Notes under the pieces: generated by a model
Database searches by the model: none
What the model saw: only the letters and a program-made list of their open reading frames with translations
What the model was told of the DNA's origin: nothing
DNA from: Nanobdellota archaeon
Lineage (GTDB): Archaea > Nanobdellota > Nanobdellia > Parvarchaeales > Parvarchaeaceae
Direction of reading: 5' to 3'
Length of the DNA: 64,000 nucleotides
NCBI GenBank assembly: GCA_021807085.1
Contig: JAKAPM010000003.1
Location: 2,014 to 66,013 of the forward strand
Made by a program: the position numbers and the translations under genes
Part shown: piece by piece, positions 12,109 to 62,290 of the stretch
How the letters are laid out: every line of letters starts with the position of its first letter
Position numbering within the stretch: position 1 is the stretch's first letter

Positions 12109-13467
12109 ATGAATGAGTCTGCGATATTTAGAGCCTACGACATAAGAGGGGTTTACGGCCAGGAACTGGATGAGGAGGCAGCACTTCTAGTTGGAAAGGC
12201 GGTTGGCACGTACGCAGGTGACGGTAAGTATGTCGCCGTCGGGAGGGATGTGCGCCTCAGCAGTGATTCCCTGCACGAAAAAGTGGTTGAAGGTATAATC
12301 TCTACTGGCTGCAATGTGGTAGATTTTGGCATAATACCCACCCCTCTTCTCTATTTCGGGGTGAACCATGAGAATCTATCTGGTGGTATAATGATAACTG
12401 CTTCGCACCTACCACCAGAATGGAACGGCTTTAAGATAGTCAAGGAAAAGGGCTTCATACTGTCCGATGGCACAGGATTGGAGAATATACACAACATATT
12501 CACAAAAAGGGCCTTCGCGACAGCCACCACCTCCGGCAAGGTCGCCGACATGTCAATATTGGACAAATACAAAAGATTTTGCGTGGAAAATATACCTCCC
12601 GGCAAGAGGCTGAGCGTTGTGCTCGACTATGCCAACAGCGTAACTTCCCTCGTGGCTGGGGACATAATAAGGAAACTCGGATTCGATGTTCACGAGATAA
12701 ACAAGGAACTGGATGGAACATTCCCCAACAGAGCATCCGAACCGAGCGAAGAGTCACTCCAGGGCCTAAAAAAAGAGGTTTTGGAGAGGAAGGCCGATAT
12801 AGGGATAGGCTATGATGGCGACGGTGATAGAGTGGCTTTCGTGGACGAAAGAGGGAGGATATTTGCTTCAGGCGATGTAACGATACCAATTCTTACCAAA
12901 CATTTGATGGGCAGAAAGGGGCCGGGAAAGGTCGTGCTTGATGTCACGTGCTCTCTGGCCATGGCTGACTACTTAAAAAATCTAGGGGCGGAACCGATAG
13001 TCGTCAGGACGGGGCACGGGTACTGCGTCCAGGCCGTGCTGGAGAACAATGCCCTGATAGGGGGGCAGTTCAGCGGGCATATAGCCCTGCCGGATGCCAA
13101 CTGCGCGGATGATGCCATATACGCCAGCCTCATCCTGCTGGATGCGCTAGTATCGAGTAGTGCGAAACTGTCCGAGCTAGTGGATTCTGTACCAAGCTAT
13201 AGCACTACTAAAATGGAACTGGTCGAGTGTCCAGATTCAGAGAAATTTGGAGTAATGGAGAAAGTGAGGGGTCTGGCCCGAAAATTGGATTATGATAAAC
13301 TAGAAATAGATGGAGTGAAGCTCATCGGCGATGATGGGGGGGTCCTGATAAGGGCTTCCAATACATCTCCTTTTATCCGCATAAGCGCAGAAGGCAAAAC
13401 AAAAGAAAAAGCAGAGGAATTTCACAGAACTGGGAAGACTCTGCTCGTAGAGGCGATGGGCGCATGA
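12109..13467 (+). CDS. Phosphomannomutase/phosphoglucomutase-family phosphohexomutase (candidate phospho-sugar or phospho-acetylglucosamine mutase)
   Basis: 452 aa. Active-site TASHLPPEWNG (phosphoserine loop) and GYDGDGDRVAF metal loop. Divergent in sequence from the second mutase at 991..2277. Confidence 0.8.
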   Translation: MNESAIFRAYDIRGVYGQELDEEAALLVGKAVGTYAGDGKYVAVGRDVRLSSDSLHEKVVEGIISTGCNVVDFGIIPTPLLYFGVNHENLSGGIMITASHLPPEWNGFKIVKEKGFILSDGTGLENIHNIFTKRAFATATTSGKVADMSILDKYKRFCVENIPPGKRLSVVLDYANSVTSLVAGDIIRKLGFDVHEINKELDGTFPNRASEPSEESLQGLKKEVLERKADIGIGYDGDGDRVAFVDERGRIFASGDVTIPILTKHLMGRKGPGKVVLDVTCSLAMADYLKNLGAEPIVVRTGHGYCVQAVLENNALIGGQFSGHIALPDANCADDAIYASLILLDALVSSSAKLSELVDSVPSYSTTKMELVECPDSEKFGVMEKVRGLARKLDYDKLEIDGVKLIGDDGGVLIRASNTSPFIRISAEGKTKEKAEEFHRTGKTLLVEAMGA

Positions 13468-14624
13468 TAAAACAGGCAGTTATACTGGCTGCGGGAAGGG
13501 GTAACAGGATGAAAAAAGGCTCTATCGACCCCACTATCCTCAACACCCCCAAGCCGCTGCTGAGGGTCAACGGAACGCCGATGATAGAAACCATAGCCGA
13601 CAAGCTGGTTTCGCACGGGATGGAAGTCATCGTGGTGGTCCACCCTGAGGATAAGAAGAAGTTCGAAGATGCCCTTTCCAAATATGTTGGGAATATAACC
13701 TATTGCCTCCAGGAAGACAGACTCGGCACCGCTTCGGCGCTGTACGCTGCGAAGGATGCAGTAAAGGACGATCTTTTCCTGGTTTTCATGGGCGACGACA
13801 TCACCAAATATGACATAGATAATATAAGAAAGACCACTCGTCCGTCTGTATTCGGCTATAGAGTCGATGACGTTAGCGGCTACGGGGCTCTCTTGTTAGA
13901 CGGAGACGAGGTTCTTGACATACTCGAGAAGAAACTCAACGGGCCAGGAGTAGCCAACACTGGCGTGTACGTCATGCCCCACGCTTTTTTTGACATCTAC
14001 AGCAGTATACCTAAAGATGAGAGGAGCGGGGAATATTTCCTGACGCATGCTGTAAGGCTGCTGAGAGACGCAAACACGAAATTTTATCTGAGAAACATAG
14101 ACTTCTGGTTTGGTGTAAACACACCAGAACAGCTGGCGGCTGCAAATGCAACATTCAACTTGGCTTCTAGGAATGGGCTGTCGGACAACGAGCAGCTGAG
14201 GCTTATAACAAGGGATGACCTAAAGGAGGTCCTTAATGTTTTGTACCAGCTCAGTCCGCCAGGTGGAAAAGACGACGCTATGTCACCAGAAATTCTGTCT
14301 TCCGTGCTTGGCGAGATAATCGCAGATAAAAACCACCATATGGCTGTTTATGAGGATAACAGTAGAGTAGTCGGCACTGCCACTCTTCTTGTGCAGAGAA
14401 ATCTATCGCATGGGGGAAAGCCTTACGGGCACATAGAGAATGTTGTGGTGGACAATAGTTACAGGGGTAAAGGAGTCGGTTTGAAGCTTCTCAAATACCT
14501 CATAAACATTGCAAGGGAAGAGGGCTGCTACAAGCTCGTGCTGAACTGCAACGACAGCAACATTCCTTTCTACGAGAAGATAGGTTTCAGGGTGCACGAA
14601 AGAGAGATGCGTCTCGATTTGTAA
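13464..14624 (+). CDS. Bifunctional fusion: N-terminal GlmU/RmlA-like sugar-1-phosphate nucleotidyltransferase plus C-terminal GNA1-type (glucosamine-6-phosphate N-acetyltransferase-like) GNAT domain
   Basis: 386 aa. N-terminus AVILAAGRGNRM matches the nucleotidyltransferase G-x-G-x-R loop of GlmU/RmlA. C-terminal ~160 aa aligns collinearly with eukaryotic GNA1 as I recall it: ...LITRDDLKEVLNVLYQLS...SPE...VVGTATLLVQ...HIENVVVDNSYRGKGVGLKLL...CYKLVLNC...FYEKIGFRV. Overlaps the upstream mutase by 4 nt. Confidence 0.75.
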   Translation: MIKQAVILAAGRGNRMKKGSIDPTILNTPKPLLRVNGTPMIETIADKLVSHGMEVIVVVHPEDKKKFEDALSKYVGNITYCLQEDRLGTASALYAAKDAVKDDLFLVFMGDDITKYDIDNIRKTTRPSVFGYRVDDVSGYGALLLDGDEVLDILEKKLNGPGVANTGVYVMPHAFFDIYSSIPKDERSGEYFLTHAVRLLRDANTKFYLRNIDFWFGVNTPEQLAAANATFNLASRNGLSDNEQLRLITRDDLKEVLNVLYQLSPPGGKDDAMSPEILSSVLGEIIADKNHHMAVYEDNSRVVGTATLLVQRNLSHGGKPYGHIENVVVDNSYRGKGVGLKLLKYLINIAREEGCYKLVLNCNDSNIPFYEKIGFRVHEREMRLDL

Positions 14625-14707
14625 GTTTCCGTAAATATTTTCGCTTACAGGCTTCCTGTGATAACAGTGTTATAATATATTTAAATGATCGCATATAACT
14701 AATATTC

Positions 14708-15064
14708 ATGTCTGAACTGTTTTGTGCGAAGGTTATAACCGAATTGATGCCATCGGTAAGATCGTTTGTTTCCAACAAGCTAATCCAAAGCGGTCTGAGC
14801 CAAGAAAAGACCTCTTCGCTACTAGGCGTGACTCAACCAGCCATCTCACAATACAAGAAAAAAGTGAGGGGTGCGCTATACAAACAGATGGAGGCTAACG
14901 ACAAATTCTCTAGCTACCTCTGCAAGATATCAGACGACATTCTTTCCCACAACACCGATATCAACGCAAAGACATGCGAGATATGCAGAAAGGCCAAAGC
15001 GTCCGGCCTGTTTGAAAACGGAAAATCATCGAACTATCTGTGTCTGTCGGAAATAGGTAGTTGA
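14708..15064 (+). CDS. Small HTH transcriptional regulator with C-terminal Cys cluster (candidate Fe-S/metal-sensing regulator of suf)
   Basis: 118 aa. HTH GLSQEKTSSLLGVTQPAISQY. C-terminal cysteines in YLCKIS, KTCEICRK and YLCLSE (4 Cys). Ends 12 nt before sufC on the same strand. Confidence 0.5.
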   Translation: MSELFCAKVITELMPSVRSFVSNKLIQSGLSQEKTSSLLGVTQPAISQYKKKVRGALYKQMEANDKFSSYLCKISDDILSHNTDINAKTCEICRKAKASGLFENGKSSNYLCLSEIGS

Positions 15065-15076
15065 AGTCCATTCGAT

Positions 15077-15814
15077 ATGGCAGAGTTAAAAATCTTGGAT
15101 TTAGACGTCAATATATCGGACACAAAGAAGATAATAAAGGGGTTGAACCTGTCCGTAAAAGGGGGAGAACTACACGTTCTGATGGGCCCAAATGGTAGTG
15201 GAAAGAGCACGCTGGCGAACGCAATATTCGGTAATCCAAAATACATCGTGAAAGCTGGCAAGATAGAGCTGGACGGTGAGAATCTTCTGTCATTGAAGGT
15301 GGATGAGAGGGCCAGAAAGGGGCTGTTTCTGGCGTTTCAGGAGCCCGTAGAGGTACCGGGCGTCAATGTAATGAACTTTTTGAGGATAGCTTTCGGGCAG
15401 CTCAAACCTGGCGACCCGCAGATAACTGACTTTAGGCAGACTGTCGTCGCCTACTTGAAAAGATTTGGTCTAGCAGAACATTTTCTAAAAAGAGCCCTCA
15501 ACGAAGGTTTTTCTGGCGGGGAAAAGAAGCGCTTTGAGCTTCTACAGGCTATCCTCTTCTCCCCCAAGATAGCAGTGCTTGATGAATTGGATTCTGGGCT
15601 GGACATGGACAGTGTAAAAACTATGGCGGAAGCTGTTAGAGAGCAACTCGCCAAAGGCACTGGAATACTCATGATAACTCACAGCGAGAAAATGTTCGAA
15701 TACCTGAAACCAGATTTCATACATATTATGGTTGACGGAAAGATAGTCAGAAGCGGCGGCTCAGAAATAGCCAGTGAGCTGCACAGCAAGGGGTACGCTG
15801 GCCTGGGTGGATGA
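15077..15814 (+). CDS. sufC: Fe-S cluster assembly ATPase SufC
   Basis: 245 aa ABC ATPase. Walker A GPNGSGKST, ABC signature FSGGEKKR, Walker B IAVLDELDSGLD, H-loop ITH. Confidence 0.9.
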   Translation: MAELKILDLDVNISDTKKIIKGLNLSVKGGELHVLMGPNGSGKSTLANAIFGNPKYIVKAGKIELDGENLLSLKVDERARKGLFLAFQEPVEVPGVNVMNFLRIAFGQLKPGDPQITDFRQTVVAYLKRFGLAEHFLKRALNEGFSGGEKKRFELLQAILFSPKIAVLDELDSGLDMDSVKTMAEAVREQLAKGTGILMITHSEKMFEYLKPDFIHIMVDGKIVRSGGSEIASELHSKGYAGLGG

Positions 15815-17208
15815 TTATGGAAAAGCTAGCTTTCGACTACAGTGGATATAATTTCCGCAACGGCACCGACTACGAGCTGAAATTTCCGAAAGGGCTGACT
15901 AAGGAAGTGGTGGAGAGGATTTCGAAGCTCAAGAACGAGCCGGATTGGATGCTAGAGTTCAGGCTGAACGCTTATAAATTCTTCCTCAACAGACCGATCC
16001 CTACATGGGGCGGAGACTTGAGTGAGATAGATTTTGATAGTATACATTATTTCATGAGGGCGACCAAGAGTATGGCTACAAAGTGGGATGAGCTTCCAGC
16101 CGACATAAGAGCCACTTACGACAAACTCGGCATACCGGAAGCGGAGAAAAAGGCGCTTTCAGGCGTTGAAGTAATGTATGAGAGTGAGAGCATATACAGC
16201 AGCATAAAAAAGGAGCTGGAGAACATCGGCGTCATATTTTGTGACACCGACACCGCCGTTAGGAAATATCCCGAACTCGTGAAGAAATACATAGGGCATG
16301 TAGTATCGTCGAACGATAACAAGTTCGCCGCGCTGAACTCCGCGGTGTGGAGTGGTGGCAGCTTCATATACGTGCCTAAGGGAGTAAGAGTGCCGATGCC
16401 ACTGCAGGCATACTTTAGGATAAACGCAGAGAGTATGGGCCAGTTCGAGAGAACTTTGATAATAGTGGATGAGGGTGCGGATGTGACGTACATAGAAGGG
16501 TGCAGTGCGCCGGTTTACTCGAATAATTCCCTCCACGCTGCCGTCGTTGAGATAATAGCCCATAGGAATTCTCATGTCAAATATATAACTATACAGAACT
16601 GGTCAGATAACATCTATAATCTTGTTACCAAAAGAGCATTCGCGCACGAGAATGCATTTGTAGAATGGGTGGACGCAAATATAGGTTCACGGCTGACTGA
16701 AAAATACCCGTCGGTCTACATGCTGGAGGAGGGCGCCAAAGCGAACATCATCTCGATAGCCTTCGCGAACAAGGGCCAGCATCAGGACGCCGGCGCGAAA
16801 GCTGTGCATCTGGCGTCCAATACCAGCTCCACCATACGTTCAAAGTCGATATGTGTCAATGGAGGCAGGACAAGCTATCGTGGACTGGTGAAAGTTATTA
16901 GGGGCGCGGAAGACGTAAAATCTAGCACAAGATGTGACGCCCTGATACTCGATGAAATTTCGAGAAGCGACACTTATCCATATATGGAGGTAGATGAACC
17001 TTCCGCCACCATAACGCATGAAGCGACAGTCGGCAAAATAGGGGACGAACAGCTCTTCTATATGCAGTCCAGGGGGCTCTCAGAACAGGATGCTGTAAAC
17101 ACAATAGTGCTAGGTTTCATGGCCGACTTCATAAACGAGTTGCCGTTGGAATTTGCCATAGAATTTAATCGTTTGATAAAAATAAGTATGGAAGGGGCGG
17201 TGGGATAG
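15811..17208 (+). CDS. sufB: Fe-S cluster assembly scaffold SufB
   Basis: 465 aa. SufB/SufD beta-helix core with a conserved Cys (EGCSAP) and a C-terminal motif; overlaps sufC by 4 nt. Confidence 0.9.
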   Translation: MIMEKLAFDYSGYNFRNGTDYELKFPKGLTKEVVERISKLKNEPDWMLEFRLNAYKFFLNRPIPTWGGDLSEIDFDSIHYFMRATKSMATKWDELPADIRATYDKLGIPEAEKKALSGVEVMYESESIYSSIKKELENIGVIFCDTDTAVRKYPELVKKYIGHVVSSNDNKFAALNSAVWSGGSFIYVPKGVRVPMPLQAYFRINAESMGQFERTLIIVDEGADVTYIEGCSAPVYSNNSLHAAVVEIIAHRNSHVKYITIQNWSDNIYNLVTKRAFAHENAFVEWVDANIGSRLTEKYPSVYMLEEGAKANIISIAFANKGQHQDAGAKAVHLASNTSSTIRSKSICVNGGRTSYRGLVKVIRGAEDVKSSTRCDALILDEISRSDTYPYMEVDEPSATITHEATVGKIGDEQLFYMQSRGLSEQDAVNTIVLGFMADFINELPLEFAIEFNRLIKISMEGAVG

Positions 17209-18399
17209 ATGTCCCGCGACGATTTTCTTGTAAAATTTTCAAAGGACAAAGGGGAGCCCGATTGGCTGCTTAATTACCGAAAGAAAGCGCTTTCTGAATC
17301 ATCTCGGCTAGCGTTCGAACCAGATTCTAAATTTTCAAAATACAACGACAGGGAGAGATACTTGACGTTATCTGAAAGTGAACTGGAGATAGCGTACACC
17401 AAGCCTGAAGAGAATAGAACATCGTCGATTCACAGCAACGCCTCTGGGATTCTTGTGGAAGAAATCAGTTCTGCGCTAAAGAATGACAAGCGGCTTCGCG
17501 ATGCCGTCGAACACGAAGTAAATTATGACTCTGTGGGGGCGGCTATAAACTCTTCGTTTAGCTCTGGACTCTTCATACGCGTGCCGGATTCGTATTCCGC
17601 TCAGGTTCCGCTGCAGATATCAACCTCTGTTTTCATGGGACTCAACATAAACAAGAGTGCAATTATAGTGGGTAAAAACAGTCACGTCAAAATCGTGTGC
17701 GAACTTGTATCTGCGGACGCGTCGCCTTCCAAGTTTATGCAGAACCTTTCCGTGCGCATCGGTCAAGACTCGTCGTTGCAGCTCTACTCTATACAAGCTA
17801 CAAACCCTTACACTATAGTTTCTGTCTGGCGTGATGTATATTCGGAGGGCAAGTTTGGCTTCGTATCGTTGGATTCGGGGGGGAATAGCATAAGGTCCAG
17901 GCTGAAATTAGACCTGGAGCACGGTGGGGCAGAAGGCGACGTTTACGAGGCGTTTGTAGGGAGGAGTGATATGTACTTTGACGTGTTCAACAAGATTGAC
18001 CACACAAAGGGAAACACAATCAGTAGAACAAATTCCAGGGCGATACTGGACGACAGTTCGAAAGCAGTTTTCAAAGGTTCCGTACACCAGGAGAAAGAAG
18101 CAATAGCATCTCATACAACCCTATCTGAACACTCCCTCCTTCTGAGCAGTGGCGCAAGGAGCGTATCCATACCGGGTCTGGAAATAGAGACGAATGAGGT
18201 CAGCGCATCGCATTCTGCGTCTTCCCATACCATAAGTAAAGAAGATAAGTTCTACTTGATGTCCAGGGGAATAGAGGAAAAGGGCGCAGCCAACATGATA
18301 GCAGTAGGTTTCCTGGATCCAGTTCTGTCGAAGTTTTACAGCGGCCTGTCTGACTATTACGGTAACATCGAAGAAAGATTGAAAAATATAGTAATTTAA
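17209..18399 (+). CDS. sufD: Fe-S cluster assembly protein SufD
   Basis: 396 aa SufB/D-family paralog directly after sufB (start 1 nt after the sufB stop). Confidence 0.8.
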   Translation: MSRDDFLVKFSKDKGEPDWLLNYRKKALSESSRLAFEPDSKFSKYNDRERYLTLSESELEIAYTKPEENRTSSIHSNASGILVEEISSALKNDKRLRDAVEHEVNYDSVGAAINSSFSSGLFIRVPDSYSAQVPLQISTSVFMGLNINKSAIIVGKNSHVKIVCELVSADASPSKFMQNLSVRIGQDSSLQLYSIQATNPYTIVSVWRDVYSEGKFGFVSLDSGGNSIRSRLKLDLEHGGAEGDVYEAFVGRSDMYFDVFNKIDHTKGNTISRTNSRAILDDSSKAVFKGSVHQEKEAIASHTTLSEHSLLLSSGARSVSIPGLEIETNEVSASHSASSHTISKEDKFYLMSRGIEEKGAANMIAVGFLDPVLSKFYSGLSDYYGNIEERLKNIVI

Positions 18400-18422: not shown

Positions 18423-19082
18423 ATGGGCATAATATTCGATTTAGATGGCACACTTATCAACAGTCTGGGAGTCCACCGAGACTCGGTCAAGAGAGGGTTT
18501 GATACTGTATTAGGGAAGAACAGGGTGACAGCCAGTTTTGTCGCAGAAAATATAAGATACCCCTTCTCGATGCTTATCAAGAACTTGAGGAGAAATGGTA
18601 TCGAAATAACCGATAAAGATGCAATGTTGGTATTGTCGACTGCGGACAGATACATGACGCTGAAGAAGATATCGGAAGGCGTGAAGTTTTTCCGCGGAGC
18701 TAAGGAAGTTATATCGTTGATACGGTCGACGGGAATAAACTACTGTATAGCGACCTCAATGGATGACGCCGAGGTCAAAAATACAATCCGCGCACTCAGC
18801 CTGTCTTCTCTTGGAACCATGATAATAAATTCCAAGAATAGGAGGAGAGAAAAACCAGACCCTTACCTTCTGAACATAGCCATAAGGGAGACGGGTATGA
18901 ATAGGGCGCACACATGTTACATTGGTGACAGCAAATTCGATTTTTTGGCTGCAAGAAGAGCCAAGATAGGTTTTCTTGGTGTATTCAATAGGAGAGAACT
19001 GTCTGGTAAGGGACAGTTCTTCGGCAATCTCACCACCCTCAGAAAATATATAGAAAAGAACGCCGGCCTATTTTTTGACTGA
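18423..19082 (+). CDS. HAD-superfamily hydrolase (phosphatase, subfamily IA)
   Basis: 219 aa. Motif I IIFDLDGTL, motif II S/T (IATS), motif IV GDSKFD. Confidence 0.75.
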   Translation: MGIIFDLDGTLINSLGVHRDSVKRGFDTVLGKNRVTASFVAENIRYPFSMLIKNLRRNGIEITDKDAMLVLSTADRYMTLKKISEGVKFFRGAKEVISLIRSTGINYCIATSMDDAEVKNTIRALSLSSLGTMIINSKNRRREKPDPYLLNIAIRETGMNRAHTCYIGDSKFDFLAARRAKIGFLGVFNRRELSGKGQFFGNLTTLRKYIEKNAGLFFD

Positions 19083-51060: not shown

Positions 51061-51420
51061 TTATAGATTGTCGTTTATCCATTTCTGCAGCGGCTCTTTC
51101 TGCATAGCGCCGACAATGCTGGATTTTACCTTGCCGCTCTTCATGAGAAGGGTGGTAGGTATCGCTTCCACACCATATTTAGCGGCTATCTCCTGATTTT
51201 CATCTACGTTTATCTTTACTAGCTTTATCTTGTCTTTCATCCCTTCCGACACTTCCTCTATTATCGGCGAGTACCATCGGCAAGGCATGCACCAGGGCGC
51301 CCACAGGTCCACCAGGACGGGAACTTTTGATTCCAGAACTTCGCTCTTGAATTTGTCTTCACCACTGACGTCTACGCTCATATTATTTTTACCCCCGATG
51401 AAAATATGTGAGATCATCAC
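51061..51420 (-). CDS. trx: Thioredoxin
   Basis: 119 aa. Active site WAPWCMPCR (CxxC) and a cis-Pro region (AIPT). An alternative start at Met14 would give ~106 aa. Confidence 0.8.
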   Translation of the reverse strand: MMISHIFIGGKNNMSVDVSGEDKFKSEVLESKVPVLVDLWAPWCMPCRWYSPIIEEVSEGMKDKIKLVKINVDENQEIAAKYGVEAIPTTLLMKSGKVKSSIVGAMQKEPLQKWINDNL

Positions 51421-51585
51421 AATATTCTATGTTTTATATGAACTGATATCTTTTCAGCTATTTAAAATTTCCAGATTTGCTTCGTTTTTAAATCCAGCGT
51501 CCGCTGCGCAAAATTTGCTAGCGAAAAATCGTCTACATAACATAGTTATAAAAGATTTAAATATAACGATCTCATAATCTATACG

Positions 51586-52152
51586 ATGGCGTTCGTAGAT
51601 TCGCTAACAGTGATGCTTCTTCTTACAGGATTCAGTGCCCTCACGCTAGCCTTGTACGTGTTTCTTGCGGCAAGGGGCAAAAAGGATTTCAACGTCCTCA
51701 TCGCACCGGCGTTTATATTCGGTATCTTCGACGCGGTCAGCGGATTCGTAATGTCGTTTACCTGGCCTCTGCCGGGAGCTTACAACATGCTTTTCGGAGA
51801 CCCGTTGCTGGCTCTGGGATTGCTGATGATAGCAGGTGCTTATATGCTCTACAAGAGGATGGACGTCAGGATTCTCTCTATATTCGCCGTTTTCTTGGGC
51901 GTATACATAGCAATAGGGGCGGCTTCAATGTCGACTTTCAACCTGGAGAGCGGATCACATTTCTTGTCCTCGTTCGGATTTTACGTCGTATCGGCTTCGG
52001 CTGCACTGTTTTCGCCTCTCGTATACGCTAATGTTAAGAGGAAGGGAAAATACGCGTACTATTTCCTGTTTGCGCTTCTGATACTGTCGGCTTTCGCAGC
52101 TTTCTTCATAGGGTACACTGGTCTGTACTCGCACCTGCAATCGCCCCCCTAG
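51586..52152 (+). CDS. Polytopic membrane protein, function unknown
   Basis: 188 aa, about 6 TM helices, no catalytic motif recognised. Confidence 0.4.
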   Translation: MAFVDSLTVMLLLTGFSALTLALYVFLAARGKKDFNVLIAPAFIFGIFDAVSGFVMSFTWPLPGAYNMLFGDPLLALGLLMIAGAYMLYKRMDVRILSIFAVFLGVYIAIGAASMSTFNLESGSHFLSSFGFYVVSASAALFSPLVYANVKRKGKYAYYFLFALLILSAFAAFFIGYTGLYSHLQSPP

Positions 52153-62212: not shown

Positions 62213-62290
62213 ATCCGTTTTTCCGGATAAGGCGGCTGTACAGAATCCCCACGAAGTAAGGCTTAAATTTTATAACATAGTTATAGGCAC

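Follow-up and report, generated by a model that had tools for sequence, protein, structure and literature searches.

A small cysteine-containing helix-turn-helix protein upstream of sufCBD as a strong candidate for an archaeal regulator of Fe-S cluster supply

The analysed window, a 64-kb stretch of a contig from a Nanobdellota archaeon, encodes on its forward strand a helix-turn-helix (HTH) protein of 118 amino acids directly upstream of genes for the SUF system. The open reading frame (14708..15064, ATG start) is real, as the initial annotation had proposed, and its stop codon is separated by 12 nt from the ATG of sufC at position 15077. The sufC gene (15077..15814, forward strand) encodes the ABC ATPase (Pfam ABC_tran, 2.5e-23) and overlaps by 4 nt with sufB (15811..17208, forward; SUFBD_core, 4.1e-80, and SufBD_N), which is followed by sufD (17209..18399, forward; SUFBD_core, 1.3e-46) and by a gene for a HAD-family hydrolase (18423..19082, forward; HAD_2, 2e-26). 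The 12-nt gap and the conserved synteny described below suggest that the regulator gene, sufC, sufB and sufD form one operon, of which the HAD gene is possibly the last member. A HAD hydrolase with 34-54% identity is also found just downstream of sufD in most Parvarchaeota-type loci (L008-L034) and may be a functional part of the SUF operon of this type. A search against Rfam gave no match within the window.

Two neighbouring genes differ in structure between related genomes. Upstream of the regulator gene, the window has a single gene (13464-14624) for a 386-aa fusion of an NTP-transferase and a GNAT acetyltransferase; its counterpart in a genome whose regulator is 60% identical (L001, 6786-7944) consists of two overlapping genes for proteins of 237 and 150 aa. 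SufB is interrupted in Candidatus Parvarchaeum acidiphilum ARMAN-4 and in two metagenome-assembled genomes (MAGs) labelled 'Nanoarchaeota' (L016, 4299-6772; L026, 5872-8358; L028, 6115-8583). The insert of about 1.0-1.07 kb follows the residue that aligns with position 231 of the window SufB (...IEGC|SAP), and homology is picked up again past it; the window SufB (465 aa) is without insert. The insert looks like an intein.

The initial annotation described a clear HTH in the 118-aa protein. An HTH is indeed placed at residues 29-49 (14792-14854), but the match of the window protein alone is weak: it reaches 19.2 bits against HTH_3 (PF01381; residues 25-51, E-value 1.2e-3), which is below the cutoff of 23 bits, and HTH_37, HTH_23, Sigma70_r4 and HTH_5 compete as weak matches, with further weak matches to the 434 repressor and NE_1354. 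Of 42 homologues, 37 match HTH_3 at an E-value of 0.01 or lower (best 4.7e-8). The regulator is outside every curated family. Neither Pfam nor NCBIfam contains a model specific to the family when searched with the window protein and the 42 homologues, which match generic HTH models, and in the PDB no entry covers the family beyond the HTH, so that residues 56-118 are without a solved structure. The searchable literature contains no description of this protein family, whose members carry source names such as 'hypothetical protein', 'predicted transcriptional regulator' and 'helix-turn-helix domain-containing protein'.

A word-indexed homologue search retrieved, besides the query, a single relative with 60% identity and the same gene order, and a genome scan based on the alignment of these two sequences found no relatives as its peptide patterns were too specific. 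The orphan status suggested by the word-indexed search was ruled out when 1.84 billion cluster representatives were searched exhaustively with a profile; this yielded 393 proteins with an E-value of 1e-3 or lower, 38 of them at 1e-10 or lower. These representatives are nearly all archaeal, have a length of 95-130 aa and align from end to end. The family spans DPANN archaea, Methanobacteria, Bathyarchaeia and MAGs that are Asgard-related or labelled Thaumarchaeota. One member that was found together with its operator on a 2.4-kb contig binned as 'Campylobacterales bacterium' (L077, JAIVYO010000138.1) probably represents a mis-binned archaeal contig. Apart from the cysteines discussed below, P15, R18, A45, Y49 and R54 are invariant in the family and Q32, Q43 and S47 are invariant or nearly so, and the recognition stretch of the HTH, TQPA[IV]SQY...R, is near-invariant.

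The window protein has five cysteines (C6, C72, C90, C93 and C112). The initial annotation had noted four of these, all in the C-terminal region. Three of the four withstand comparison with the 33 suf-linked homologues, in which C90 is conserved in all sequences and C93 and C112 in 32 each, the one exception for C112 being a cysteine shifted by one residue. The fourth, C72 (14921-14923), is confined to the window protein, and C6, which had been overlooked, is present in 33/33; no other cysteine is conserved in this set. The conserved codons are located on the forward strand at 14723-14725 (C6), 14975-14977 (C90), 14984-14986 (C93) and 15041-15043 (C112). C6 and the C90-x2-C93 pair are near-invariant throughout the family and invariant in an alignment of 109 sequences (A3). 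With C6, C90, C93 and C112 as candidate ligands, the protein shows the three or four invariant Cys/His residues of transcription factors that ligate Fe-S clusters. Members of the wider family have in addition a cysteine aligned with position 103 and a histidine aligned with position 106 (CKLH, a C-x2-H motif), and a terminal CxxC. The two CxxC knuckles of a zinc ribbon or treble clef occur in this wider family and are absent from the window protein and the suf-linked subfamily, which have one CxxC and two isolated cysteines. In the AlphaFold2 (AF2) model the helical core is predicted with confidence (pLDDT 84.5), with C6 at the start of the N-terminal helix and C90-x2-C93 in helix 6, while C112 is located in a poorly ordered tail (residues 100-118, pLDDT 48-58). 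Such low values around C112 would be expected of a segment that depends on a cofactor.

When one genome was scanned for each GTDB species, 495 loci with relatives of the regulator were found, and the best 80 of these were analysed. Neighbouring genes were identified by tblastn with the window's own proteins, and for the remaining loci by Pfam. The nearest loci belong to MAGs labelled Woesearchaeota, 'Nanoarchaeota', Parvarchaeota (including ARMAN-4) and Aenigmatarchaeota, with 30-50% identity. These best hits point to a Parvarchaeales-like DPANN archaeon as the most likely source of the window. The regulator gene lies directly upstream of sufC-sufB(-sufD) in 31 loci, comprising all but two of the 31 closest ones plus L055 and L070, and the SufC match begins about 9-65 nt past the end of the regulator match. 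The synteny of orthologues with sufCB(D), which had been put forward as a check, holds with the same orientation across species for 31 of the 33 closest loci. The two exceptions (L025 and L035) adjoin iscS-iscU, as do six Aenigmatarchaeota loci; here the neighbours are a cysteine desulfurase (Aminotran_5, 7e-86) and IscU (NifU_N, 5e-44), either co-directional with the regulator gene or divergent from it. In four Methanobacteria loci, one of which is from a complete genome (Methanobrevibacter acididurans DSM 15163, L082), the gene is found between cysK-like (PALP) and cysE-like (hexapeptide) genes on one side and cysS on the other, in the order cysK-cysE-X-cysS. The family therefore occurs in three separate Fe-S or cysteine gene contexts, namely suf, iscS-iscU and cysteine-synthesis genes. 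About 19 loci of Aenigmatarchaeota type (L039-L079; for example L054, 5286-8813, minus strand) have the regulator homologue convergent with a gene for a protein of 850-1300 aa to which Pfam gave no match at 1e-5, and nine of these loci also encode a conserved protein of about 300-327 aa without Pfam match.

The initial annotation proposed to look for a palindromic operator in 14625..14707, and such a site is found there. The predicted operator ATAACAGTGTTAT (14661..14673, strand-neutral) is located 47 nt upstream of the ATG and abuts the element AATATATTTAAAT (14674..14686, forward strand), about 22-34 nt upstream of the ATG, which we take to be a TATA box on the basis of general knowledge of archaeal promoters. 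The genome of the 60%-identical relative (L001) has ATAACACCGTTAT at the same place. The family consensus is tTATAAC-N3-GTTATA with the exact core ATAAC-N3-GTTAT. In the window, in L001 and in most suf-linked loci this core precedes the start codon by 43-47 nt. Among the best 80 of the 495 loci, 53 from several phyla have the exact palindrome upstream of the regulator gene and about seven more have it with one mismatch at the same position. In total, 683 kb of locus sequence contains 54 exact sites, nearly all of them at promoters of regulator genes. An alignment of 49 loci anchored on the palindrome shows that it is directly followed by a conserved TTTATAAA / TTTAAAT; the arms (fixed by selection in this alignment) and the following TTTATAAA are informative, in contrast to the 3-nt spacer and the upstream flank with next to no information content. 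This conservation of the operator is matched by that of the recognition stretch TQPA[IV]SQY. At loci with a divergent iscS the site is 19-32 nt from the iscS start, and one site could therefore serve both promoters. Directly before the genes of the Methanobacteria members the exact operator is missing; these members may have a different site or one in front of cysK. The constant distance between operator and ATG suggests that the regulator transcript is leaderless or nearly so. The 3' half-site coincides with the position of the BRE, and from general knowledge of archaeal promoters this would favour repression by occlusion of TFB/TBP.

The exact core occurs three times in the 64-kb window, where 0.03 sites are expected, and all three occurrences are close to promoters. 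The second site, ATAACATAGTTAT (51537..51549, strand-neutral), followed at the same spacing by TTTAAAT, is 49 nt upstream of a gene for a DUF981 membrane protein (51586..52152), in the intergenic region between this gene and a divergent thioredoxin gene on the minus strand (51061..51420). The thioredoxin open reading frame (WCMPC motif) is listed with a GTG start and an odd N-terminal extension, MMISHIFIGGKNN; its true start is probably an internal ATG (MSVDV...). The third site, again ATAACATAGTTAT (62272..62284, strand-neutral), is 19 nt upstream of the ATG of an aconitase gene (62291), just downstream of the TATA-like element TTAAATTTTA; the aconitase reading frame extends beyond the end of the window. 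Aconitase is a [4Fe-4S] enzyme, which fits a regulon for Fe-S homeostasis. The site is absent, however, upstream of its two nearest available homologues (about 70% identity), whose genomes may lack the regulator, and for this reason aconitase and the DUF981 protein are only candidate members of the regulon. In L088 (2501-5296 of a 163-kb contig) the aconitase homologue appears as two consecutive genes for 502 and 413 aa, owing either to a split gene or to a frameshift.

A metagenome-wide scan with TATAACNNNGTTATATTT returned at least 120 matches that were mostly noise, and among the matches listed only L106 and L145 carry the family; in L145 the site is located between the regulator gene and a divergent cysteine desulfurase gene. 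An AT-rich nanoarchaeon-like contig (L117) has the motif (2560-2577) 44 nt upstream of a sufC-like gene (1844-2533, 35% identity), with a 202-aa low-complexity reading frame instead of a recognisable sufB and without a regulator gene nearby. Also among the matches listed, the TATAACNNNGTTATATTT 18-mer is found about 30-70 nt upstream of bacterial TetR-like genes, whose products share N-termini of the type ...LRNIVKDAGLTTGAFYKYYPTKE... (L108, L132, L134, L173, L174, L114, L122, L165, L184 and L107, mostly from human-gut metagenomes). These sites seem to belong to an unrelated operator of bacteria whose half-sites are identical, and they call for caution when a regulon is scanned for by motif only.

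In its function the protein looks analogous to IscR and SufR, but it belongs to neither family, as it matches no Rrf2 or SufR profile and differs from both in size, HTH type and cysteine spacing. According to work cited in two papers (PMC6034842, PMC13066941), SufR of cyanobacteria and actinobacteria is encoded first in or adjacent to the suf operon, is autoregulated and binds a palindromic operator in the suf promoter. Its [4Fe-4S] cluster is ligated by four conserved cysteines of the C-terminal part, and the holo form represses. The window regulator resembles SufR in its adjacency to suf, in the palindrome in its own promoter and in having four conserved cysteines. SufR differs in its length of about 220-250 aa and in its winged-helix N-domain; the window protein has 118 residues, is all-alpha with a tri-helical HTH of XRE/DeoR-like type, has one candidate ligand (C6) N-terminal to the HTH, is encoded by an archaeon and has its operator on the BRE/TATA. 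At an E-value of 10 or lower, NCBIfam gave no SufR model match to the window protein and just a weak match to sigma-70 region 4.

The Rrf2 regulators IscR, RirA, NsrR and RisR are likewise small homodimeric Fe-S sensors that autoregulate biogenesis operons and control genes of Fe-S client proteins, but their HTH type and cysteine spacing are different from those of the window regulator. The ligands of IscR are spaced C-x5-C-x5-C-x2-H (92/98/104/107 in Escherichia coli) and are C-terminal to the winged HTH; the window protein has C6...C90-x2-C93-x18-C112 without a conserved histidine and does not have this pattern, while the C-x2-H (CKLH) of the wider family is, as we take it, reminiscent of C104-x2-H107. 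The Rrf2 family (PF02082) gave no match to the window protein at an E-value of 1 or lower and is missing from the 25 families listed for the 42 homologues. Only 5 of 641 Rrf2 members are archaeal (PMC9973013). The HTH_3 proteins of XRE/Cro-C1 type and the N-terminal HTH of DeoR/SorC proteins have neither the cysteine-bearing N-terminal helix nor the C-terminal CxxC...C module. SurR of Thermococcales is an archaeal regulator with a CxxC, in which the state of the cysteines switches DNA binding and the effect depends on the position of the site relative to BRE/TATA. It is however a two-domain winged-helix protein of ArsR type with about 230 aa, has its CxxC inside the N-terminal DNA-binding domain, responds to S0 and is without linkage to suf; no sequence similarity to the window regulator was detected.

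Taken for itself, the proposal that the protein is an operator-binding autoregulator is very likely correct. The full reading that we prefer, an autoregulated SUF regulator that binds the operator, senses through its four cysteines, most likely by an Fe-S cluster, and represses in its holo form, seems to us somewhat better than an even proposition. A dimer would bind ATAAC-N3-GTTAT through the HTH, and occupancy of the operator at BRE/TATA would exclude TFB/TBP and so repress the leaderless operon transcript. The signal would be read by a site formed by C6, C90, C93 and C112, with an Fe-S cluster delivered by the SUF machinery as the most likely ligand. With enough clusters the protein would be a DNA-binding holo-repressor, while shortage or oxidation would leave the apo form and lead to derepression. 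SufR works in this way, and so does IscR on isc. Several points weigh against this reading. The four cysteines could equally bind zinc or form disulfides, the C-x2-H and the terminal CxxC of the wider family give a CxxC...CxxC arrangement that resembles a zinc-ribbon-type site, and the predicted site is missing both at the two nearest available aconitase homologues and, in exact form, before the Methanobacteria members. Moreover, repression of aconitase by a holo-repressor would be physiologically awkward, which hints at activity that depends on position or on the apo form.

The same autoregulator could alternatively be a thiol redox or persulfide switch, in which the CxxC together with C6 and C112 forms disulfides or persulfides without any metal cluster, and in which oxidative or sulfane-sulfur stress releases the protein from DNA and induces SUF. 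Its closest parallels would be SurR of Thermococcales and sensors of the CstR/SqrR/BigR type. The CxxC is invariant, members of the family adjoin genes for cysteine desulfurase and cysteine synthesis, whose products handle persulfide and sulfide, the thioredoxin gene has the second window site in its intergenic region, and SUF is a classic stress-induced system. We nevertheless consider this switch unlikely: one redox pair would do and yet four cysteines are invariant, its use is less obvious in strict anaerobes, to which many members belong (Methanobacteria, Aenigmatarchaeota), and the NCBIfam matches to BigR and ArsR are limited to the HTH and far below cutoff. It seems more improbable that the cysteines form a structural Zn(Cys)4 site and that the signal, be it a small ligand, a partner such as SufC or SufB, or the protein's own concentration, enters elsewhere. 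The CxxC-x22-CxxC of the wider family is indeed typical of zinc-ribbon or treble-clef sites, and the modelled protein is small and shows no obvious ligand pocket. On the other hand, the suf-linked subfamily has lost one cysteine of the terminal pair and keeps the distant C6, which would make an atypical zinc ribbon, the structure is predicted with low confidence around C112, and the recurrent linkage to three Fe-S/cysteine gene sets argues for a signal related to Fe-S clusters or sulfur.

Another possibility is that the logic is opposite or dual, so that the apo form binds DNA, activates suf from a site before the TATA box and represses Fe-S clients such as aconitase from a site that covers the transcription start. 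This would be a form of Fe-S sparing like that of apo-IscR on suf, with TrmBL1 and SurR as parallels for regulators whose effect depends on position. At suf and at the DUF981 gene the site precedes the TATA-like element, and at aconitase it is located between this element and the ATG; with such differing positions one DNA-binding form could have opposite effects. It would also remove the paradox that aconitase is repressed when clusters are plentiful. Since the 3' half-site lies exactly at the BRE, which favours occlusion of TFB over its recruitment, and since positive autoregulation would be unusual for a homeostatic system and two homologous loci lack the aconitase site, we regard this logic as quite unlikely. 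Finally, the protein could be a small HTH protein of generic type, such as an antitoxin or a mobile-element remnant, and have its place upstream of suf in this genome by chance. The window protein's own Pfam match is a sub-threshold HTH_3, and toxin-antitoxin and phage modules often contain HTH proteins of XRE type, but this reading is contradicted by the synteny with suf in 31 loci down to 30% identity, by the operator, by the four cysteines and by the linkage to isc and cys genes. No gene for a toxin-like partner is present, and we consider the generic reading extremely improbable.

As a member of a widespread family of cysteine-bearing HTH proteins with a conserved palindrome in their own promoters and with Fe-S or cysteine genes as neighbours, the window protein is a strong candidate for an archaeal regulator of Fe-S cluster supply. 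The family would be a new one that carries out a familiar kind of task in archaea, where this task has had no known agent. The regulation of Fe-S biogenesis in archaea is essentially uncharted; IscR/Rrf2 and SufR are almost absent there, and the searchable reviews and papers name no archaeal counterpart of either. The protein offers a concrete candidate with four predicted ligand residues, a putative operator of 13-15 bp and a defined promoter, and with homologues in cultivated methanogens such as M. acididurans DSM 15163 genetics and biochemistry are feasible. The wider proposal, which we hold with somewhat less than even confidence, is that a pan-archaeal and so far undescribed family of HTH proteins with cysteine-ligated (Fe-S) sites acts, through one operator, as the master regulator that has been missing for the supply of Fe-S clusters and cysteine in Archaea. 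If so, SUF/SMS, the ISC/MIS-type iscSU and the cysKE/cysS genes would be controlled via TATAAC-N3-GTTATA on the BRE/TATA, with effects that depend on position on Fe-S client genes such as aconitase. One regulator family would then link SUF, ISC-type and cysteine-synthesis genes, which would bear on the early evolution of Fe-S homeostasis.
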